Positions 1 to 13,128 of a stretch of 64,000 nt of DNA are shown piece by piece. Numbering within the stretch: the stretch's first letter is position 1; every line of letters begins with the position of its first letter. The position numbers and the translations under genes were made by a program. Source of the DNA: Escherichia coli (GTDB taxonomy: Bacteria > Pseudomonadota > Gammaproteobacteria > Enterobacterales > Enterobacteriaceae). The stretch lies in NCBI RefSeq assembly GCF_050320075.1, contig NZ_CP190018.1; one strand, written 5' to 3'. A model generated the notes under the pieces. The model was given only the letters and a program-made list of their open reading frames with translations. It was not told the origin of the DNA and ran no database searches.

Positions 1-1437
1 ATTGCGATAAAGCTGGGTTAATACCGAGCGTTCAAAACGGCTGGTGATTTCGTCCAGCGAACCTTCCATCGCATCTTCGCCCACGGCTACCGTTGCGGCG
101 TCATAATCCGGTAACAAAATATCCTGTGGACGCAGCTCATAACCGTCCAGTTGTGTCAGTGCGCGATAAATAGCGTTCTTTAACTGCCGCACATTTCCCG
201 GCCACGCATAACGCGTAAGTACAGTATTCAGGTCAGCGGCCAGTTTCGGACGCGGCACGCCCTGCTCGTCGGCAAAGCGGGCGACGAACAGCTCGGTTAA
301 CGGCATGATGTCCTGCGGACAGTCACGTAGCGGCGGCAGATTAAGCGTCAACACGTTCAGACGATAATAAAGATCTTCACGGAACACGCCTTTTTGCACC
401 AGTTCGACAAGATTCTTCTGCGTCGCGCAAATCACCCGCACATCGACATGCACCTCATGGTCTTCGCCAACCCGACGGAAAGTGCCATCATTAAGGAAAC
501 GCAGTAATTTCGCCTGCATCCGTGGTGACATCTCACCTATTTCATCCAACAGCACCGAACCACCGTTCGCCTGCTCAAAGAACCCTTTCTTCCCTTCCGG
601 AGCATGACCAAACAGTTCACTCTCGACCGCATCTTCCGGTATAGACGCACAGTTCAGCGCCAGATAGGGTTTGCCCGCGCGTGGGCTTGCCTGATGACAG
701 GCATATGCAAAGAGATCTTTTCCGGTGCCGGTATCACCGGTTATCAGCAATGGCGCGCTTAGCATCGCCAGTTTCTGCGCCTGTTCGACAACATGCTTCA
801 TTTTCGGGCTGACGGCGACAATTTGACTGAAGGCGCTGACGTCCTGGGCGGCGACATTTTGCAACTGACGACCCATACGAATCGTTGATCGCAACATCAC
901 CACCGCACCGGTCAGGACGTGTTGATCATTTTCATCCTGAAGATAAACAGGCGTAATCTCCATCAGGAAATTCTGTCCATTAATAACGACATGCTCGTTA
1001 TGGGAATCCTGCGGTTCGCTTTCCAGCCAGCGTAAAAAATTAAAGCCGTTAATCAATTGCGCGGCGGTATGGTTGCGCAGGCGATCCAATTTTTGCCCAA
1101 AAAGCTGACAGCTCGCCGGGTTCGCCATATCCACTTTGCTTTTCATATCGACAGAGAGCACAGGTTCAGGCAACGCTTCCAGTAACGCGCTCAACGCCAG
1201 ATGCTCACGTTCAGAAGGCATCCACGGGACAGTACGGACATCGGTAACACCTGCAATACGGCGTATTTCGGCCATCAGACTGCTGAAACTCTCAAACTCC
1301 AGTTCAGCAAAATTGAGGTAGATTCGCCCAATGGGATCAATCTCAATACCGCGTAAATCAATGCCTCTTAGCACGAGTAGATCGAGTAATTCGCGGGTCA
1401 GACCGAGTCGGTCTTCACAAAAGACTTCCAGACGCAT
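1..1437 (-). CDS. tyrR: Transcriptional regulator TyrR, sigma-54-interaction-domain family; N-terminal ~479 codons, 3' end lies beyond the window start
   Basis: Reverse-strand translation from the ATG near 1437 reads MRLEVFCEDRLGLTRELLDLLVLRGIDLRG..., matching the TyrR N-terminus; the frame stays open to position 1; position upstream of ycjF matches K-12 synteny. Confidence 0.9.
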   Translation of the reverse strand, partial: MRLEVFCEDRLGLTRELLDLLVLRGIDLRGIEIDPIGRIYLNFAELEFESFSSLMAEIRRIAGVTDVRTVPWMPSEREHLALSALLEALPEPVLSVDMKSKVDMANPASCQLFGQKLDRLRNHTAAQLINGFNFLRWLESEPQDSHNEHVVINGQNFLMEITPVYLQDENDQHVLTGAVVMLRSTIRMGRQLQNVAAQDVSAFSQIVAVSPKMKHVVEQAQKLAMLSAPLLITGDTGTGKDLFAYACHQASPRAGKPYLALNCASIPEDAVESELFGHAPEGKKGFFEQANGGSVLLDEIGEMSPRMQAKLLRFLNDGTFRRVGEDHEVHVDVRVICATQKNLVELVQKGVFREDLYYRLNVLTLNLPPLRDCPQDIMPLTELFVARFADEQGVPRPKLAADLNTVLTRYAWPGNVRQLKNAIYRALTQLDGYELRPQDILLPDYDAATVAVGEDAMEGSLDEITSRFERSVLTQLYRN

Positions 1438-1584: not shown

Positions 1585-2646
1585 TTATTTTTCGCTGGGC
1601 GTTTTGCCTTTTTGCAGAGTTTCTTTCACCTGACCGATAAGCTGACGACGGAAATCCCCGAGGCGTGGCTTGTCATCGTCAATCCACGGCAGCGGGCGGC
1701 AAAGCTCCATAGCTTTAATCCCCAGTCGTGCCGTCAGAAGTCCTGCACCAATCCCCTGAGCTGCGCGGGTAGACAAACGCGCAGCGAGATCTTGCGACAT
1801 CCAGTCCATCCCCACTTCGCGAACCAGTTCGCTGGCTCCGGCGAAAGCGATATTCAGCAATACCAGCTTGAACAGGCGCAAACGGCTGTAATACCCCAGT
1901 TCAATGCCATACAGCGTGGCGATGCGATTAATCAAACGCAGATTGCGCCAGGCGATAAATGCCATATCCACCAGCGCCAGCGGGCTAACGGCGATCATTA
2001 ACGTTGATTCCGCTGCCGAACGGCTGATTTCGCGCCGTGCCTGGGCATCTAAAACCGGCTGGACCAGATGAGCATACAGGCTGACCACTTCACGATCGTT
2101 CTGCGTTTCATGGATTGAGGCATACCAGCGTTGCAGCGCCGGATGCGACTGATCAATACCCGCCTGCTGCGCCAGTTTTTCGCAGAATGCACGGCCTTTA
2201 CCCGTGCCGTGACTGTGCAACAAATCGCGCGCTTCGTCGCGTTCATGGGCGCGCTGTCGCAAGCGCCATAAGCGCCGCCACTCTGTTACCACAGAACCTA
2301 CGCCAGCGCCGATAATCAATGCCCCAGCGGCACATCCACCCAGCGCCACCCAGTCCTGGGTTTGCCAGGCGTTCATTGTCCACTGTACACCCTGCCCGAC
2401 AACGCTTGCGCCAAACAGAGCCAACCCGCCCATCACCATTTTGCGCCACAGGCTGCGTTTCGGACGTAACGCTGCATCCATTACCGCTTCAACTTGCCCC
2501 TCTTCTTCCTGCGCTTCATCGAGCGTGGCCGGGGCAAAATTTTGCGCCTGATTTTCGTCAAAGGTCTGCTGCACCCTGAATTTTGGATTCTGATCGACCT
2601 CCAGTGGACCGTCGAAATCAATACGTGGTTTTAACGGTTCGGTCAT
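1585..2646 (-). CDS. ycjF: UPF0283 inner-membrane protein YcjF
   Basis: 353-aa ORF, same length and N-terminus ([13 protein letters not shown]...) as K-12 YcjF; overlaps the ycjX stop by 4 nt. Confidence 0.9.
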
Positions 2647-4040
2647 CGCAATTTATCTCCTATTAAAAATTCCAGCGCAGCATCAAGGCGAATATGCGGC
2701 AGCGGTTTGTCGACATCCATCACCTGCGGACGAAACGCCTCAAACTGGAAGCCTTGCTTATCCCAGAACGCCTGACCAGGCAAACGTGCGGGAACTTCGC
2801 CAGGATAAACAGTGAGCGGTGCGCCATCACTGAGTCGATTACCGCGCAGCGCCGGGATTTTCTCACCGTTAACATCAATAATGCCGCTGGTGGTCGCCTG
2901 AACTGACGCCAGCCCCAGGCAGTCCATGCTGATCCCTTCGAACGCCGCATTTTGCCAGGCATCCTGAATTAGTTGTTGCAGTAATGAAACCATATTGGCG
3001 TGCTGATCGATGGTCACATGGTCTGCTTTAGTCGCAGCAAACAATAGCTTATCGATAACCGGCGAAAACAAACGCCGGAACAGGGTTCGCTGCCCGTAGT
3101 GGAAACTTTGCATCAGCTGCGTCAGCGCCAGACGCATATCATTAAATGCCTGTGGCCCACTGTTGAGAGGCTGCAGGCAATCCACCAGCACAATCTGGCG
3201 GTCAAAGCGCAGAAAATGATTCTTATAGAACCCCTTCACCACCTTCTCGCAATAATAATTAAAGCGCTCGCGCAGCATTCCGGCATTGGTATGCTTATCG
3301 GCCTGCGCCAGTTTGGACTCGCCCCAGGCATCGACATCCGGCCACGGGAAGAATTGCAGCGCGGGTGCTCCTGCCATATCTCCCGGCAAGACAAAGCGCC
3401 CAGGCTGAATAAAGTGCAACCCCTGCTGTTTGCAGTGGTGGAGATACTCGGTCCAGGCGGCGGCAATGTCTGCCAGCCGGTTTTCGTCGGCAGGCGCTAG
3501 CGGGTCCAGCCCTTCGCACATCATTCGCCATTTCGCCGACCATTCGCCGCGCTGACCATTGAGTAAGCCCGTCATCTGGCGCGACCAGCTTAAATAGTCC
3601 TGCGCCAGCATCGGCAGGTCGAGCAACCATTCGCCGGGGTAATCCACAATTTCCAGATACAGCGTGGAGGTGTCCTTAAAGTGGCGTAGCAGCGAATCGT
3701 TCGATTTAAAACGTAACGCCAGGCGAATTTCACTGACGCCGCGCGTAGGCGTCGGCCAGGCGGGAGGATCGCCATATAACTGCGCCAACCCTTCATCATA
3801 GGTGAAGCGCGGAATGCCAAAGTCACGCTGGGGAATGCGTTTTACGCCCAGCAGGCGCTCTTCACGCACCGCACTTAAAAGCGGCAAACGTGCTCCGGCA
3901 TGAATATTGAGCAACTGATTAACCATCGCGGTGATAAACGCTGTTTTGCCGCTGCGGCTAAGTCCGGTTACAGCGAGGCGCAGATGTCTGTCGACACCCC
4001 GATTCACCAGCGCATTAAGTTCATTTTTAAGTCGCTTCAT
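2643..4040 (-). CDS. ycjX: P-loop NTPase YcjX (DUF463)
   Basis: 465-aa ORF; Walker A motif GLSRSGKT near the N-terminus; synteny with ycjF. Confidence 0.9.
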
Positions 4041-4158
4041 TGCTGTCCTGTGCCAGAAAGCTGTAGAAAGGATTAGATACTGGAGATAATAATGTGGGTT
4101 AATTTTGATTTATCAAATGAGTAAGCGGCGTTGTTTACACCGCTCAATAAGTAATTTG

Positions 4159-4473
4159 TTAACCTTTGACCTTCGGCATTGCGATGTCTTTCAGGCCGCC
4201 GGCGTTCTCAACGTGGGTATATCCCATCTCGCTAAGGATCTCTTTTGCCTGCCCTGACTGGCGTCCGGCATTGCAATACACTTTCACGGTGTCGTTTTTA
4301 TCCGGAACGGCGGTGGCAATGCGCTCTTTCACTTCCTTCAGGGGAATATTGATGGCTCCCTGAACGTGCTCTTGCTGATACTGCTCTGGAACACGAACAT
4401 CGATCCAGTGTTCAGCGGCGAAAACGGGCAGTGAAAACACCAGTGTCAGAGCAAGTAAGCCTTTTTTAAACAT
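4159..4473 (-). CDS. pspE: Periplasmic rhodanese (thiosulfate sulfurtransferase) PspE
   Basis: 104-aa ORF with signal peptide and rhodanese active-site region (VYCNAGRQS); last gene of the psp cluster. Confidence 0.9.
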   Translation of the reverse strand: MFKKGLLALTLVFSLPVFAAEHWIDVRVPEQYQQEHVQGAINIPLKEVKERIATAVPDKNDTVKVYCNAGRQSGQAKEILSEMGYTHVENAGGLKDIAMPKVKG

Positions 4474-4547
4474 GTAAGCGTCCTTCTATGGATGAAAATT
4501 GCCATCCATAATATGCCTTAGCTTTAACAATTTTTGCGAAACTCCCC

Positions 4548-4769
4548 TCACCTTTTATAACGCTGCGCCAGTTTATTGGCAGCCCGACTTAACAGCGGTT
4601 CCAGCGCCACGGCCAGCAACATTTTCAGTGGTCGGCGAGCAACTGATTTTATCGCCCAGCCAGCTACACCCGCCGGGCCATAGCGCAGTGCGGTAAGAAG
4701 TACCAGCTTGCCTGCTAATTTGAAACCAGGCTTCACCTTTTGCCCGGCCTGTTGCCAGCGAGTATTCAT
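4548..4769 (-). CDS. pspD: Phage-shock protein D
   Basis: In-frame start at [20 protein letters not shown]... gives 73 aa, matching K-12 PspD. Confidence 0.85.
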
Positions 4770-4777
4770 AACTTTCC

Positions 4778-5137
4778 TCACAGTTGACGGAAACGGCTAC
4801 GTAACGTGAAAGTATCGGAAGTGACATAACGTTCCATCTCGCGTAAACGCGTTTCACTTGCCGCCAGTTCACGGTCGACTTCATCCAGCAATTCACTGCT
4901 GGAAGGTAGCTGCTCACCAAAGGCCATGTTGTCCGGCATTGGATCAAGCGCAAATGACAAAATGATGTAAGCAACCAGGGTAAACAGCGCCAGACCGAAG
5001 AAAATCGACAGCACCACCAGGATACGCACCAGTTTTACTGGTACATCAAAATAGTTGGCAATCCCGGCGCAGACGCCACGGACCATGCCCTGCTGTGGAA
5101 TACGCCATAATTTTTTATTGAGATTAATGCCCGCCAT
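4778..5137 (-). CDS. pspC: Phage-shock protein C
   Basis: 119 aa, [30 protein letters not shown]...; PspC domain. Confidence 0.9.
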
Positions 5138-5361
5138 TAGCGATCCCTCCAGTTCGGATGTTCTGCATCAAGAATGGATTCCAGCGCCTGAATACGTTCG
5201 CGCATCCGTTTTGCTTCATCAGCCAGTTGCGCTAATCGCTGCTGCTCACTTTGCGACAATTCACTGCGACCAGAACGATTGCTGTAATGCAGCCATAACC
5301 AGATCGGTAAAACAAACAGCACAAAAATGGTTAACGGAATAGCCAGAAATAGCGCGCTCAT
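5137..5361 (-). CDS. pspB: Phage-shock protein B
   Basis: 74 aa, MSALFLAIPLTIFVLFVLPIWLWLHY...; overlaps the pspC start. Confidence 0.9.
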   Translation of the reverse strand: MSALFLAIPLTIFVLFVLPIWLWLHYSNRSGRSELSQSEQQRLAQLADEAKRMRERIQALESILDAEHPNWRDR

Positions 5362-5414: not shown

Positions 5415-6155
<741 letters not shown>

Positions 6156-6249: not shown

Positions 6250-7227
6250 ATGGCAGAATACAAAGATAATTTACTCGGTGAGGCGAACAGCTTTCTCGAA
6301 GTGCTGGAACAGGTTTCGCATCTCGCACCGCTGGACAAACCGGTGCTCATCATCGGCGAGCGCGGCACAGGTAAAGAGCTGATTGCCAGCCGTCTGCATT
6401 ATCTCTCCTCCCGTTGGCAGGGGCCGTTTATTTCCCTTAACTGCGCGGCGTTAAATGAAAATCTGCTGGATTCCGAACTGTTTGGTCACGAAGCGGGCGC
6501 GTTTACCGGTGCGCAAAAACGTCATCCAGGGAGATTTGAACGTGCCGACGGCGGTACGCTATTTCTTGATGAACTCGCTACGGCACCGATGATGGTGCAG
6601 GAGAAATTATTGCGCGTGATTGAGTACGGTGAACTGGAGCGCGTTGGCGGCAGCCAGCCATTGCAGGTGAATGTGCGGTTGGTATGCGCGACGAATGCCG
6701 ATCTCCCGGCGATGGTCAATGAAGGTACTTTTCGCGCTGACCTGCTCGACCGGCTGGCTTTCGATGTAGTGCAACTGCCGCCCCTGCGCGAGCGCGAAAG
6801 CGACATTATGCTGATGGCAGAACACTTTGCCATTCAGATGTGTCGGGAAATCAAGCTGCCTCTGTTCCCGGGGTTTACGGAGCGCGCCAGAGAAACATTG
6901 CTGAATTATCGCTGGCCGGGAAATATTCGTGAATTGAAAAACGTGGTGGAACGTTCAGTATATCGCCACGGCACCAGCGATTATCCGCTTGATGACATTA
7001 TTATTGATCCCTTTAAACGGCGTCCGCCTGAAGACGCTATCGCCGTTTCAGAAACCACCTCGCTTCCAACACTGCCGCTGGATTTACGTGAGTTTCAGAT
7101 GCAGCAGGAAAAAGAGTTGCTGCAACTCAGTTTGCAACAAGGGAAATATAACCAGAAGCGCGCAGCTGAATTGCTGGGGTTAACCTATCATCAGTTCCGC
7201 GCGTTGTTGAAAAAGCACCAGATTTAG
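6250..7227 (+). CDS. pspF: Sigma-54-dependent activator PspF (AAA+ enhancer-binding protein)
   Basis: Track ORF 6235..7227 begins at a GTG; the in-frame ATG at 6250 (MAEYKDNLLGEANSFLEV...) gives 325 aa as in K-12; GAFTGA motif present; divergent from pspA. Confidence 0.9.
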   Translation: MAEYKDNLLGEANSFLEVLEQVSHLAPLDKPVLIIGERGTGKELIASRLHYLSSRWQGPFISLNCAALNENLLDSELFGHEAGAFTGAQKRHPGRFERADGGTLFLDELATAPMMVQEKLLRVIEYGELERVGGSQPLQVNVRLVCATNADLPAMVNEGTFRADLLDRLAFDVVQLPPLRERESDIMLMAEHFAIQMCREIKLPLFPGFTERARETLLNYRWPGNIRELKNVVERSVYRHGTSDYPLDDIIIDPFKRRPPEDAIAVSETTSLPTLPLDLREFQMQQEKELLQLSLQQGKYNQKRAAELLGLTYHQFRALLKKHQI

Positions 7228-7248
7228 CGAAGTTGGGCAATACAACTT

Positions 7249-7330
7249 GCCGGATGCGGCGTGAATGCTTTGTCCGGCATACATAATCAATACGTCGTTT
7301 GCAGGCCTGATAAGCGCAGCGCATCAGACA
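7249..7330. repeat. Two REP (repetitive extragenic palindromic) units forming a BIME between pspF and puuE
   Basis: gccggatgcggcgtgaatgctttgtccggcatac and gcaggcctgataagcgcagcgcatcag match the canonical E. coli REP consensus in opposite orientations. Coordinates approximate. Confidence 0.7.
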
Positions 7331-7346: not shown

Positions 7347-8612
7347 TTAATCGTTCAGCGCATCCTGCAATATTTTCATTGCCGCATCGAATTGCGCATC
7401 CGGGATGGTCAGCGGATACAGGAAACGAATCACGTTGCCGTATGCGCCACAGGTCAGCAGAAGCAGCCCCTGCGCCAGCGCGCGTTGCTGGATTTTCTGT
7501 GCAATCGCCGCTGACGGCTCGCCCGTTTGCGGATCGTTAAACTCTGCCGCAATCATAGACCCCAGACCGCGTACCGCCGCGATGGACGGAACGCTTTCTT
7601 TGGCATCAATCAGCGTGTTTGTCAGACGCTGGCCCAGTTGATTCGCGCGTTCGCAGAGTGATTCTTTGTCGATAATGTTGAGCACCGCGTGCGCGGCAGC
7701 CACCGCCAGCGGGTTCCCGGCGTAGGTACCACCAAGCCCGCCCGGCGCGGGTGCGTCCATAATGTTGGCATTACCGACCACGCCCGAAAGCGGCATCCCG
7801 CCCGCGAGGCTTTTCGCCATCGTCATTAAATCCGGCTTATCGGCGTAGTGATCCATGGCAAACAGTTTACCGGTACGCGCAAAGCCGCTTTGCACTTCAT
7901 CGGCAATCATCACAATGCCGTGATCGTCGCACAGGCGGCGAATGGCGGCAACCAGCTCTTTTGGTGCAACGTTGAAACCGCCTTCGCCCTGCACCGGTTC
8001 GAAAATAATCGCCGCCACCTGCTTCGCTTCAATGTCCGATTTAAACAAGCGTTCGATGGCGTCGAGGGAGTCCTGCGTTGAAATGCCGTGTAAATCTGAC
8101 GGATAAGGTACGTGATATACCGAACCGGGGAACGGGCCGAAGCCGATTTTGTACGGCGCGACCTTTCCGGTCAGCGCCATAGTCATATATGTACGACCGT
8201 GGAAGCCGCCGCTAAACGCAATCACGCCAGGGCGTCCGGTATGGGCGCGGGCGATTTTCACCGCGTTCTCAACCGCTTCCGCACCGGTGGTGAAGAACGC
8301 AGTTTTAGCCTGCCCGCTCACCGGGGCAAGGGCGTTAATTTTCTCCGCCAGCGTGACGTAGCTTTCGTACGGCACAATCTGATACGCCGTGTGGGTAAAC
8401 TGTTGCAATTGCTGCTCCACCGCCGCGACCAGATCAGGGTGGCGATGCCCGGTATTCAGCACCGCAATGCCTGCGGCGAAATCGATATATTCGTTGCCCT
8501 CTACATCCTTCAGCGTAGCGTTTTCTGCCGACTGGGCGAAGAAGTTACACATCACGCCAACCCCGCGTGGGGTAGCAGAAAGACGACGCTGATGGAATTC
8601 ATTGTTGCTCAT
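7347..8612 (-). CDS. puuE: 4-aminobutyrate aminotransferase (PLP-dependent), putrescine utilisation pathway
   Basis: 421 aa, MSNNEFHQRRLSATPRGVGVM...; class-III aminotransferase; position after puuB. Confidence 0.9.
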   Translation of the reverse strand: MSNNEFHQRRLSATPRGVGVMCNFFAQSAENATLKDVEGNEYIDFAAGIAVLNTGHRHPDLVAAVEQQLQQFTHTAYQIVPYESYVTLAEKINALAPVSGQAKTAFFTTGAEAVENAVKIARAHTGRPGVIAFSGGFHGRTYMTMALTGKVAPYKIGFGPFPGSVYHVPYPSDLHGISTQDSLDAIERLFKSDIEAKQVAAIIFEPVQGEGGFNVAPKELVAAIRRLCDDHGIVMIADEVQSGFARTGKLFAMDHYADKPDLMTMAKSLAGGMPLSGVVGNANIMDAPAPGGLGGTYAGNPLAVAAAHAVLNIIDKESLCERANQLGQRLTNTLIDAKESVPSIAAVRGLGSMIAAEFNDPQTGEPSAAIAQKIQQRALAQGLLLLTCGAYGNVIRFLYPLTIPDAQFDAAMKILQDALND

Positions 8613-8649
8613 GTTTCACACCTTTTGACTCTTCACTGTTAATCGGAAA

Positions 8650-9930
8650 TTAAACGCCCAGACGATCGCGCAGGCTGTAATAAGCCGCGCCCATCGCGGT
8701 AAACGGAACGCGCAGCGTGCGCCCGCCGGGGAACGGGTAATGCGGCAGATTGGCGAAGGCGTCGAAGCGTTCGGCGTCACCGCGCAGCAGTTCAACAATC
8801 AAACGCCCGGCAAGATGGGTACAGGTGACGCCGTGGCCGCTGTAACCCTGCATGTAATAGATGTTGGTATCAAGGCGACCGAACTGCGGCATGCGCGACA
8901 AGGTCAGCAGGAAGTTGCCCGTCCAGCGGTAATCAATTTTCACGCCCTTCAGCTGCGGGAAGGTTTTCAGCAGTTTCGGCACCACAAGGCGCTCAACGTC
9001 ATCCGGGTCGCGCGCGCCGTAGACCACACCGCCGCCGTACAGCAGGCGGTTATCGGCGGTAAGACGGTAGTAATCAAGCAGATAGTTACAGTCTTCCACA
9101 CAGTAGTTTTTCGGGATCAGCGAACGGGCTAAATCTTCCGACAGCCGTTCAGTGGTGATCACCTGCGTGCCGCACGGCATGCTGCGTTTCGCCAGTTCCG
9201 GCTCTACTTTATCGCCCAGATACGCATTCCCGGCGACAATCACATACTTCGCCGTCACCTGACCATTGGCAGTCCGCACCACGGCTGGCGTGGTGTGCTG
9301 GATCTGCGTCACGGCGGAAAGCTCATACACGCGCCCTCCGTTCAGGCGGATGGCATCGGCTTCACCAATGGCGAGGTTTAGCGGGTGAATATGCCCACCG
9401 CTGTGATCCAGAAGCGCACCAGTGTAGCGATCGCTGGCGACCTCGCGGCGAATAGCGTTGGCGTCCAGCAGCTCCAGCTGTTTATTGCCGTAGCGTTCCC
9501 AGTTCTCTTTCTGCTCTTCCAGAGTCGCGAGCTGTTTATCATTCATCGCCACAAACAGGCCGCCGGGGCGGTAGTCGCAATCAATCTGATAACGTTTGAT
9601 ACGTTCGCGGATGATCTCGCCGCCTTCGAACATCATGCTGCCGAGCATACGGGCGGTGTCCATGCCGTAGCTTTTTTCAATGACGTCGATGTCGCGGCTG
9701 TAGGAGTTCACAAGCTGCCCGCCGTTGCGTCCGCTTGCGCCGAAGCCGATGCGTGAGGCTTCAAGAACCACCACGTCAAAGCCCGCTTCCGCCAGATGCA
9801 GCGCGGAGGAAAGCCCGGTATAGCCGCCGCCGACCACGCAAACATCGCAGGAAATCGACTCATTCAGCGTGTCGAATGGTGCGTATTTATTCGCACTGGC
9901 GGCGTAATAACTGCTGGTATGTTCGGTCAT
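8650..9930 (-). CDS. puuB: Gamma-glutamylputrescine oxidase (FAD-dependent)
   Basis: 426 aa with N-terminal FAD-binding motif VCVVGGGYTGLSSA. Confidence 0.9.
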   Translation of the reverse strand: MTEHTSSYYAASANKYAPFDTLNESISCDVCVVGGGYTGLSSALHLAEAGFDVVVLEASRIGFGASGRNGGQLVNSYSRDIDVIEKSYGMDTARMLGSMMFEGGEIIRERIKRYQIDCDYRPGGLFVAMNDKQLATLEEQKENWERYGNKQLELLDANAIRREVASDRYTGALLDHSGGHIHPLNLAIGEADAIRLNGGRVYELSAVTQIQHTTPAVVRTANGQVTAKYVIVAGNAYLGDKVEPELAKRSMPCGTQVITTERLSEDLARSLIPKNYCVEDCNYLLDYYRLTADNRLLYGGGVVYGARDPDDVERLVVPKLLKTFPQLKGVKIDYRWTGNFLLTLSRMPQFGRLDTNIYYMQGYSGHGVTCTHLAGRLIVELLRGDAERFDAFANLPHYPFPGGRTLRVPFTAMGAAYYSLRDRLGV

Positions 9931-12152: not shown

Positions 12153-12917
12153 TCAGAGTCGCTGTTTTTCAGCGATATGGTGCTGACAAGCGGTGATAAA
12201 GCCCTCGAACAATATACGCGAAAGCGCGTACTCGCTACTGTTCCATTCCGGGTGCCACTGTACGCCCAGCGCAAAAGGATGATTGATGACGCTAACCGCC
12301 TCAACTAAGCCATCCGGCGAGCGAGCTTCAACACGCAACCGTGGGCTAACGACCTTTGCCCCTTGTCCATGCAGAGAGTTTACCCAAAAGTTGCTACATT
12401 CAGGTAACAACGCAGACAGTAATCCCCCCTCTTCAACCAGAACTTCATGCGACGGCGCATATTGCTGCTCCACCGGCAGTTCGGGATCTTCCCGATGTTC
12501 CAGCAATTCAGGCTGTTCGCACAGCTTGCGATGCAACGAACCACCGGTTGCCACCACCAGTTCCTGTAAACCCCGGCAGATGGCGAAAATGGGGATGCGC
12601 CTTTCGAGTGCGGCATTAATTAACGCCATGCTCAGAAGATCACGCCCGGGATCGGCGTCAGGCTCATCGCCGTTTTCACCATATAGGTGCGGCTGCACAT
12701 TGCTGGGACTACCAGGAAGATAAATACCATCGAGTTTCGGCAAAAGTTGTTCAAGTAATGACGGTTCCGCCAGCGCATGTGGCAGCGCAATTGGCAAGCC
12801 GCCTGCGTGGATGATGGCATTCAGGTACTTTTCTTGCAGAGTCTGGGTCGCATGACCCTTAAGCCTGTTCCTGCACATTACGACACCGATAACCGGATTG
12901 TTCATTATATTTTCCAT
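12153..12917 (-). CDS. puuD: Gamma-glutamyl-GABA hydrolase (class-I glutamine amidotransferase-like)
   Basis: In-frame ATG at 12917 (MENIMNNPVIGVV...) gives 254 aa. Confidence 0.9.
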   Translation of the reverse strand: MENIMNNPVIGVVMCRNRLKGHATQTLQEKYLNAIIHAGGLPIALPHALAEPSLLEQLLPKLDGIYLPGSPSNVQPHLYGENGDEPDADPGRDLLSMALINAALERRIPIFAICRGLQELVVATGGSLHRKLCEQPELLEHREDPELPVEQQYAPSHEVLVEEGGLLSALLPECSNFWVNSLHGQGAKVVSPRLRVEARSPDGLVEAVSVINHPFALGVQWHPEWNSSEYALSRILFEGFITACQHHIAEKQRL

Positions 12918-13128
12918 GCTCAATCTCACAAAGTGGACTAAATTATCGCCATTACTGCGCTTTAAATGACCTTTATGTTCAATATTTTTTCAATCTAGCA
13001 GTGGGTTTTCATTTTTGCAAACTCAATTTAACATTTGACAAACATTTAGTTTGCATACAGATTCGAATGGTGGTCATTATATTTTACGCTTTGATAACGA
13101 GCGGAAAACAAACCAAAGGCGAAGAATC

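Follow-up and report, generated by a model that had tools for sequence, protein, structure and literature searches.

The island-free pspE-ycjX junction of a phylogroup D-type Escherichia coli, very probably an ancestral empty site

By virtue of their order in Escherichia coli K-12, pspE and ycjX are distant neighbours, kept apart by a block of ycj genes together with ompG. In the stretch of DNA analysed here, 64 kb in length and referred to below as the window, the same two genes are separated by little more than one hundred base pairs. The locus therefore raises the question of whether the short junction is the scar of a deletion from a K-12-like ancestor or a site that the island (the ycjM-ycjW/ompG cluster) never entered. 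In our assessment, the window very probably derives from a phylogroup D-type E. coli with the ancestral island-free psp-ycjXF allele, the island found elsewhere in the species being one ancient acquisition. It is the K-12 arrangement that is the derived state, and not that of the window. Gene order, distribution among genomes, collinearity with outgroups and the absence of remnants are matters of direct observation; the course of events that would have produced the two alleles is set out in conditional terms.

The junction in the window and in K-12

On the minus strand, the junction runs from the pspE stop codon (4159) to the ycjX start (4040), and the gap at 4041-4158 measures exactly 118 bp. 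The sequence-only reading had placed the gap here at about 118 bp, and the listing of open reading frames (ORFs) and the family scans agree with it. Downstream of the gap, ycjX (2643-4040, minus strand) is an ORF of 465 aa for a YcjX family GTP-binding protein that is 99% identical to K-12 YcjX and is annotated as such in RefSeq. Its downstream partner ycjF (1585-2646, minus strand; 353 aa) is an ORF matching TIGR01620 (E=3e-129), is 99.7-100% identical to K-12 YcjF, and carries the same name in the RefSeq annotation of an identical genome. Upstream of the gap, pspE (4159-4473, minus strand; 104 aa) encodes a thiosulfate sulfurtransferase/rhodanese with a match to the NCBIfam PspE equivalog NF007627 (E=4e-64) and 99% identity to K-12 PspE. 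It is preceded on the same strand by pspD (4548-4769; NF007795, E=3e-40; annotated in the identical genome) and by the ORFs of pspC (4778-5137), pspB (5137-5361) and pspA (5415-6083), whose products are 99.5-100% identical to the K-12 proteins and agree with the RefSeq annotation. The divergent activator of the psp operon, pspF (6250-7227, plus strand), is identified by RefSeq annotation and a K-12 protein match. The gene order of the window is also that of the RefSeq annotation of CFSAN061763, a genome 100% identical to it, and the PspE protein WP_000473128.1 is annotated alike in CFSAN061763, 042 and UTI89.

Two further observations concern the surroundings of the psp operon. A PspF query also matches the window at 157-792 (minus strand) with 40% identity; the match is to the TyrR AAA+ sigma-54-activator domain, and the region is tyrR, the gene downstream of ycjF, rather than a second pspF. 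Directly beyond pspF, the window holds puuE, puuB and puuC (7347-9930 onward), as do K-12 and 042. In UTI89 (phylogroup B2), the ymjA-pspF interval contains a gene fragment only, which makes the puu cluster a second presence/absence difference within a few kilobases of the junction.

Turning to K-12, the annotation of MG1655 places the end of pspE at 1370003 and the start of ycjX at 1384117, so that 14,113 bp lie between them as against 118 bp in the window. The interval comprises ycjM, N, O, P, Q, R, S, T and U, the pseudogenes ycjV and ymjB, ompG and ycjW, in keeping with the cluster that the sequence-only reading had described at this place. The genes on either side are 97-100% identical between MG1655 and the window and share both order and orientation. 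The same reading had seen no ORF remnants of the cluster in the gap, and its impression holds for the window as a whole: searches of the 64 kb with the K-12 ycj/OmpG proteins (tblastn, E<=1e-3) and with the whole K-12 island (blastn) returned no remnant, the sole match of the island being a 33-nt chance match at 7244-7276. No RNA family was found by an Rfam scan of 3800-4700 at E<=1. Of ORFs of at least 20 aa, the spacer contains a single 24-aa one with a TTG start and is entered from the flanking genes by three more, 50-58 aa long; as candidate genes, they were set aside as trivial noise. Within the island itself, ycjV (with ymjB) is a pseudogene in K-12, but UTI89 and IAI39 have it intact, as a 1,083-bp gene for an ABC-transporter ATP-binding protein (L002, 14822-15903; L085, 26970-28052; L086, 18984-20066).

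Distribution among E. coli genomes

A set of 5,426 complete E. coli genomes was screened with a 141-bp probe centred on the spacer. The island-free allele (4041-4158 in the window) was detected in 372 of them (6.9%), once in each, on the chromosome and at 98.6-100% identity. The ompG-ycjW pair is present in 5,046 genomes (about 93%), and the two states sum to 5,418 of the 5,426, which makes them essentially complementary; the polymorphism is as clean a presence/absence difference as had been proposed from the window alone. Full-length junctions of the K-12 type were recovered from 5,018 genomes on the left (pspE-ycjM) and from 5,039 on the right (ycjW-ycjX). Both ompG-ycjW and the empty junction are missing from about eight of the 5,426, and in several island-bearing genomes (e.g. 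H91, H101), IS1 insertions lie in or beside the island. Such cases may represent independent secondary deletions or disruptions.

Among reference genomes, the island is present in K-12 (phylogroup A), in UTI89, ST131 and ATCC 11775 (B2), in O157:H7 (E) and in IAI39 (F). The window is 100% identical over 25 kb to CFSAN061763, Ec-U3, MS14384 and about 20 others, and a chromosome labelled ST38 has a junction 100% identical to that of the window. Both strain 042 (PMC7500659) and CC38 (PMC12946264) belong to phylogroup D. The enteroaggregative strain 042 (NC_017626.1, 1505516-1505633) shares with the window its gene order, its PspE accession and a 118-bp spacer identical at 117 of 118 positions; it differs by that one substitution and by about 1.5% divergence over 12 kb. 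In the window, as in the island-free allele at large, pspE and ycjX are adjacent and co-stranded, the spacer is about 118 bp long and nearly identical to that of 042, and ycjM-ycjW/ompG is lacking.

The survey across phylogroups that the sequence-only reading had called for thus finds the island in reference genomes of A, B2, E and F and the empty junction in the D strains checked. Its placement of the strain outside the K-12 lineage is sustained by the junction held in common with 042 and the ST38-labelled strain. By its identity to D-lineage genomes, the window would be assigned to an E. coli of phylogroup D type, the loci of the Clermont marker pattern (arpA+, chuA+, yjaA-) themselves lying outside the 64 kb. 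That the empty junction is a marker of phylogroup D is supported by its 6.9% frequency and by the reference strains 042 and ST38, which is support short of exhaustive proof. Literature searches on CFSAN061763 and on ycj/ompG with phylogroups found no paper describing the polymorphism, but nothing about it is new in kind. It amounts to a commonplace variation in gene content that marks a lineage, would not surprise a specialist and is already contained in hundreds of annotated public genomes.

Outgroup comparison and origin of the two alleles

Outgroups were compared by searching one representative genome per species for YcjX relatives, and psp and ycj genes were located in at least 80 loci. 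In most of the 80 loci listed (Enterobacterales, Vibrionaceae and Aeromonas), the psp genes directly abut ycjX-ycjF. Among the matches listed, this adjacency spans Escherichia, Citrobacter, Enterobacter, Serratia, Yersinia, Photorhabdus, Proteus, Photobacterium, Aliivibrio and Aeromonas, and it is consistent with the "extended" psp operon with ycjXF of the literature (PMC3041696, PMC3467454). The matches listed include two non-coli Escherichia genomes; E. fergusonii, clade I, Salmonella and the named cryptic-clade type strains are not among them. The record NZ_JAATUR010000011.1 is titled "Escherichia coli strain SCPM-O-B-8794" and is about as distant from the window as E. albertii is; from this distance, it is probably a member of a cryptic Escherichia clade deposited as E. 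coli.

Both E. albertii NBRC 107761 (90.4% identity over 11 kb) and the cryptic-clade sequence NZ_JAATUR010000011.1 (90.8% over 7.2 kb) align with the window by blastn as one unbroken alignment across the junction. Their spacers measure 120 bp and 118 bp, with 102/120 (85%) and 106/118 (90%) positions identical to those of the window, a divergence similar to that of the flanks. E. albertii, the cryptic clade and Citrobacter youngae resemble the window in having pspABCDE followed by ycjXF and a spacer of 118-148 bp with a hairpin and TTGATAA; they differ from it by about 10% divergence in the Escherichia outgroups and by about 45% in the spacer of Citrobacter. The suggestion that the short junction preserves the ancestral empty site is upheld by this collinearity and by the flank-like divergence of the spacers.

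A different picture emerges from the occupied allele. When K-12, UTI89 and IAI39 are aligned to the window, the match breaks off exactly at the pspE stop codon (4159) and is regained at 4053 or 4059, 13-19 bp short of the ycjX ATG (the blastn breakpoints 7842/7948 in the oriented window correspond to window 4159/4053). In K-12 and UTI89, 105 bp of the spacer (4054-4158; 4060-4158 for IAI39) are thus swapped for unalignable sequence, with about 14.1 kb in their place. When the window was aligned with the MG1655 junctions as the sequence-only reading had advised, the absence of the island was evident, while a simple insertion into the spacer did not hold, as these 105 bp have no K-12 counterpart. 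By local alignment with shuffle controls, the terminator half of the spacer shows no significant similarity to the K-12 spacers (p about 0.5), and the promoter half is significant solely through the 13 bp beside the ATG (p=0.002), the remainder being marginal (p about 0.05). Given these shuffle tests, we do not claim that K-12 retains both halves of the spacer, although TGAGCGG lies at an equal offset after the pspE stop in both alleles and the TTGATAA...CCCACAT motif upstream of ycjX is retained in MG1655. It may be that the terminator of K-12 is the window hairpin in diverged form, in which case the left boundary is not sharply defined.

With respect to the island, the junctions are identical in phylogroups A, B2, E and F, and its divergence among K-12, UTI89 and IAI39 is 4.2-4.7% as against 2.5-3% in the neighbouring psp and ycjXF genes (L002, 4005-18117, versus L085 and L086). 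Since one set of junctions is found in all four phylogroups and the divergence is of this order, the island is at least as old as the phylogroups and was acquired once. A segment of about 77 bp near position 12,880-12,958 of the K-12 island is unalignable with UTI89 or IAI39. The annotations of K-12, UTI89 and IAI39 list neither an integrase nor an IS element nor a tRNA within the island or next to it, and its G+C content of 51.0%, compared with 49.9% and 55.3% in the flanks, is not deviant as that of a classical genomic island would be. The ycj cluster behaves as a flank-anchored indel and not as a site-specific mobile element. Compared with the window spacer, the intergenic sequence adjoining the island is no more similar than the Citrobacter spacer is, with agreement at about half of positions. 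The coding flanks show ordinary intraspecific divergence up to the junction, with 0-13 (mostly 2-7) mismatches per 150 bp, and the raised divergence of an imported tract was not seen in the 1.5 kb on each side.

Beyond E. coli, the cluster adjoins ycjX in Enterobacter cloacae, an Enterobacter metagenome-assembled genome (MAG), Superficieibacter and Siccibacter among the matches listed, and no close donor of the island was seen among them. In Enterobacter cloacae and the MAG (L006, L010), ycjS..ompG-ycjW stand directly before ycjX and the 7 kb of upstream sequence compared contain no pspE, and in E. asburiae (L007) pspD is the immediate upstream neighbour of ycjX; the same presence/absence polymorphism is thus found in another genus. 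Citrobacter werkmanii and Citrobacter sp. FP75 have the ycj/ompG cluster upstream of pspE (ycjW-pspE-ycjX) and not downstream as in E. coli, while Citrobacter youngae is island-free (pspD-pspE-ycjX), so that the island is polymorphic within Citrobacter as well (loci compared: L058, 5318-7001; L030, 5321-7001; L005, 6243-7001). The different position relative to pspE suggests independent insertions at a psp/ycjX hotspot.

A course of events can be proposed from these comparisons. In the island-free allele, the psp operon (pspABCDE) is followed directly by ycjX-ycjF-tyrR, the spacer containing only a conserved hairpin and the putative ycjX promoter. The 14-kb ycjM-ycjW/ompG cluster is very probably one ancient acquisition, with equal junctions in A, B2, E and F, and extends from the pspE stop codon to about 13 bp upstream of the ycjX start (about 75 bp if the conserved promoter motifs are counted). 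The occupied allele may have come by homologous exchange with a diverged donor in which the cluster already lay beside ycjX, bringing its own intergenic DNA, and the coding flanks may later have been homogenised by recombination within the species. The lineage leading to phylogroup D would have retained the original allele, the empty allele being vertical within the E. coli lineage. The usual E. coli phylogeny places phylogroup D among island-bearing groups, with B2/F/G on one side of it and E/A/B1/C on the other. Therefore, for D to have kept the empty allele, either the polymorphism must be long-lived or the island must have spread later by recombination.

The position of D in this tree also lends some weight to an unlikely but serious alternative, namely that the island was formerly present in phylogroup D and gave way, through homologous replacement, to an empty allele from another E. 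coli-like lineage; the sequence in D would then be of ancestral type yet re-acquired secondarily. Since the island is as old as the phylogroups and its junctions are equal in those on either side of D, a loss in D would be parsimonious on the standard tree. The flanks moreover recombine freely: ycjX of certain genomes with the island matches that of the window at 99.2-99.7% identity up to the junction. Against such a replacement stands the lack of any unusually diverged tract in the 1.5 kb on either side. In addition, spacer and flanks stand at about the same distance from E. albertii and the cryptic clade, and the donor must accordingly have been a strain of the E. coli lineage with an empty site; an ancestral empty allele within the species is therefore still required.

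A de novo deletion of ycjM-ycjW from a K-12-like ancestor, whether illegitimate or repeat-mediated, would be the simplest origin of the 118-bp junction if K-12 were taken as the reference, and the lack of ORF remnants would suit it. A fresh deletion would, however, leave a spacer of the K-12 type, and none is left: 105 bp are unalignable to either K-12 spacer, while the whole is collinear with the outgroup spacers, equal or nearly equal to them in length and 85-90% identical. A deletion is thus effectively refuted and hardly credible, and the junction is read as an ancestral-type empty site. An artefact or collapse in the assembly of the source genome is next to inconceivable, since 372 complete chromosomes, assembled independently and including that of 042, each contain the identical junction once.

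Spacer elements and the coupling of psp to ycjXF

Within the spacer, a hairpin at 4122-4146 (minus strand; 10-bp stem, loop AAACA) starts 13 bases after the pspE stop and dominates the predicted fold of the spacer RNA (-24.5 kcal/mol, z=-3.1). It is kept in E. albertii, the cryptic clade and three Citrobacter species, with compensatory double changes at 4 of 10 pairs in an alignment of six sequences only. The hairpin is terminator-like, with CUCAUUUGAU following it in place of a U-tract, and a scan of the pspE-ycjX spacer for the canonical intrinsic-terminator pattern called none. At the place of the hairpin, the island-bearing allele has a textbook terminator, GAGCGGCGC-TTAT-GCGCCG-T9. K-12 thus possesses a canonical pspE terminator as well as the YcjW repressor and its operators (PMC6599011), and the window has none of these.

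Closer to ycjX lies a promoter-like element (4089-4116, minus strand) identified as a sigma-70 pattern match. It consists of TTGATA (4116-4111), followed 12 bases on by CCCACATT (4098-4091), with CATTAT at 4094-4089. TTGATAA is invariant in all seven empty-type sequences of alignment A1, among them Phytobacter and three from Citrobacter (in two of these three the island is present, but upstream of pspE). In addition, TTGATAATCAA recurs in the spacer between ycjW and ycjX of K-12, UTI89 and Enterobacter. CCCACAT is conserved among the alleles of Escherichia; its place is taken by CCCCCCATCT/CCCCCAATCT in two of the three sequences from Citrobacter. The sigma-32 consensus is CTTGAAA ... CCCCATnT. 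By its letters, the TTGATAA motif appears to resemble this consensus and may correspond to the sigma-32 promoter reported for ycjX (PMC3041696).

The arrangement of the window invites comparison with Yersinia enterocolitica, in which ycjXF is described as part of the psp operon, pspABCD-ycjXF (PMC3467454). In both, ycjXF lies directly downstream of the psp genes on the same strand; Yersinia lacks pspE, whereas the window has pspE and, between it and ycjX, the hairpin and a separate promoter-like motif. It is conceivable, if doubtful, that the hairpin without a U-tract terminates only partly, allowing envelope-stress (PspF/sigma-54) transcription to read through into ycjX-ycjF-tyrR, and that pspE, with the H2S production that depends on PspE, does not answer to the YcjW/kojibiose circuit of K-12; this would apply to E. 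albertii and relatives as well as to island-free E. coli (phylogroup D). In most E. coli, the coupling of psp to ycjXF and the control of pspE would then both have been rewired when the island brought in its strong terminator, and island-free strains would have an extended psp operon like that of Yersinia.

Other consequences follow from the gene content known in K-12. Island-free strains would lack the OmpG porin, the YcjNOPV transporter and the LacI-type repressor YcjW, together with kojibiose phosphorylase, glucosylglycerate phosphorylase and the YcjQRS guloside pathway. When YcjW function is lost in K-12, pspE is expressed more strongly and more H2S is produced by way of PspE (PMC6599011); as YcjW is absent, this link between YcjW, pspE and H2S would not be able to operate in island-free strains. 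For the species, the junction offers a simple marker, verifiable by sequence, that sets about 7% of E. coli genomes, of phylogroup D in the cases checked, apart from the others. For the family, the window restores in E. coli the psp-ycjXF adjacency typical of other enterobacteria, which bears on the function of YcjX and YcjF.
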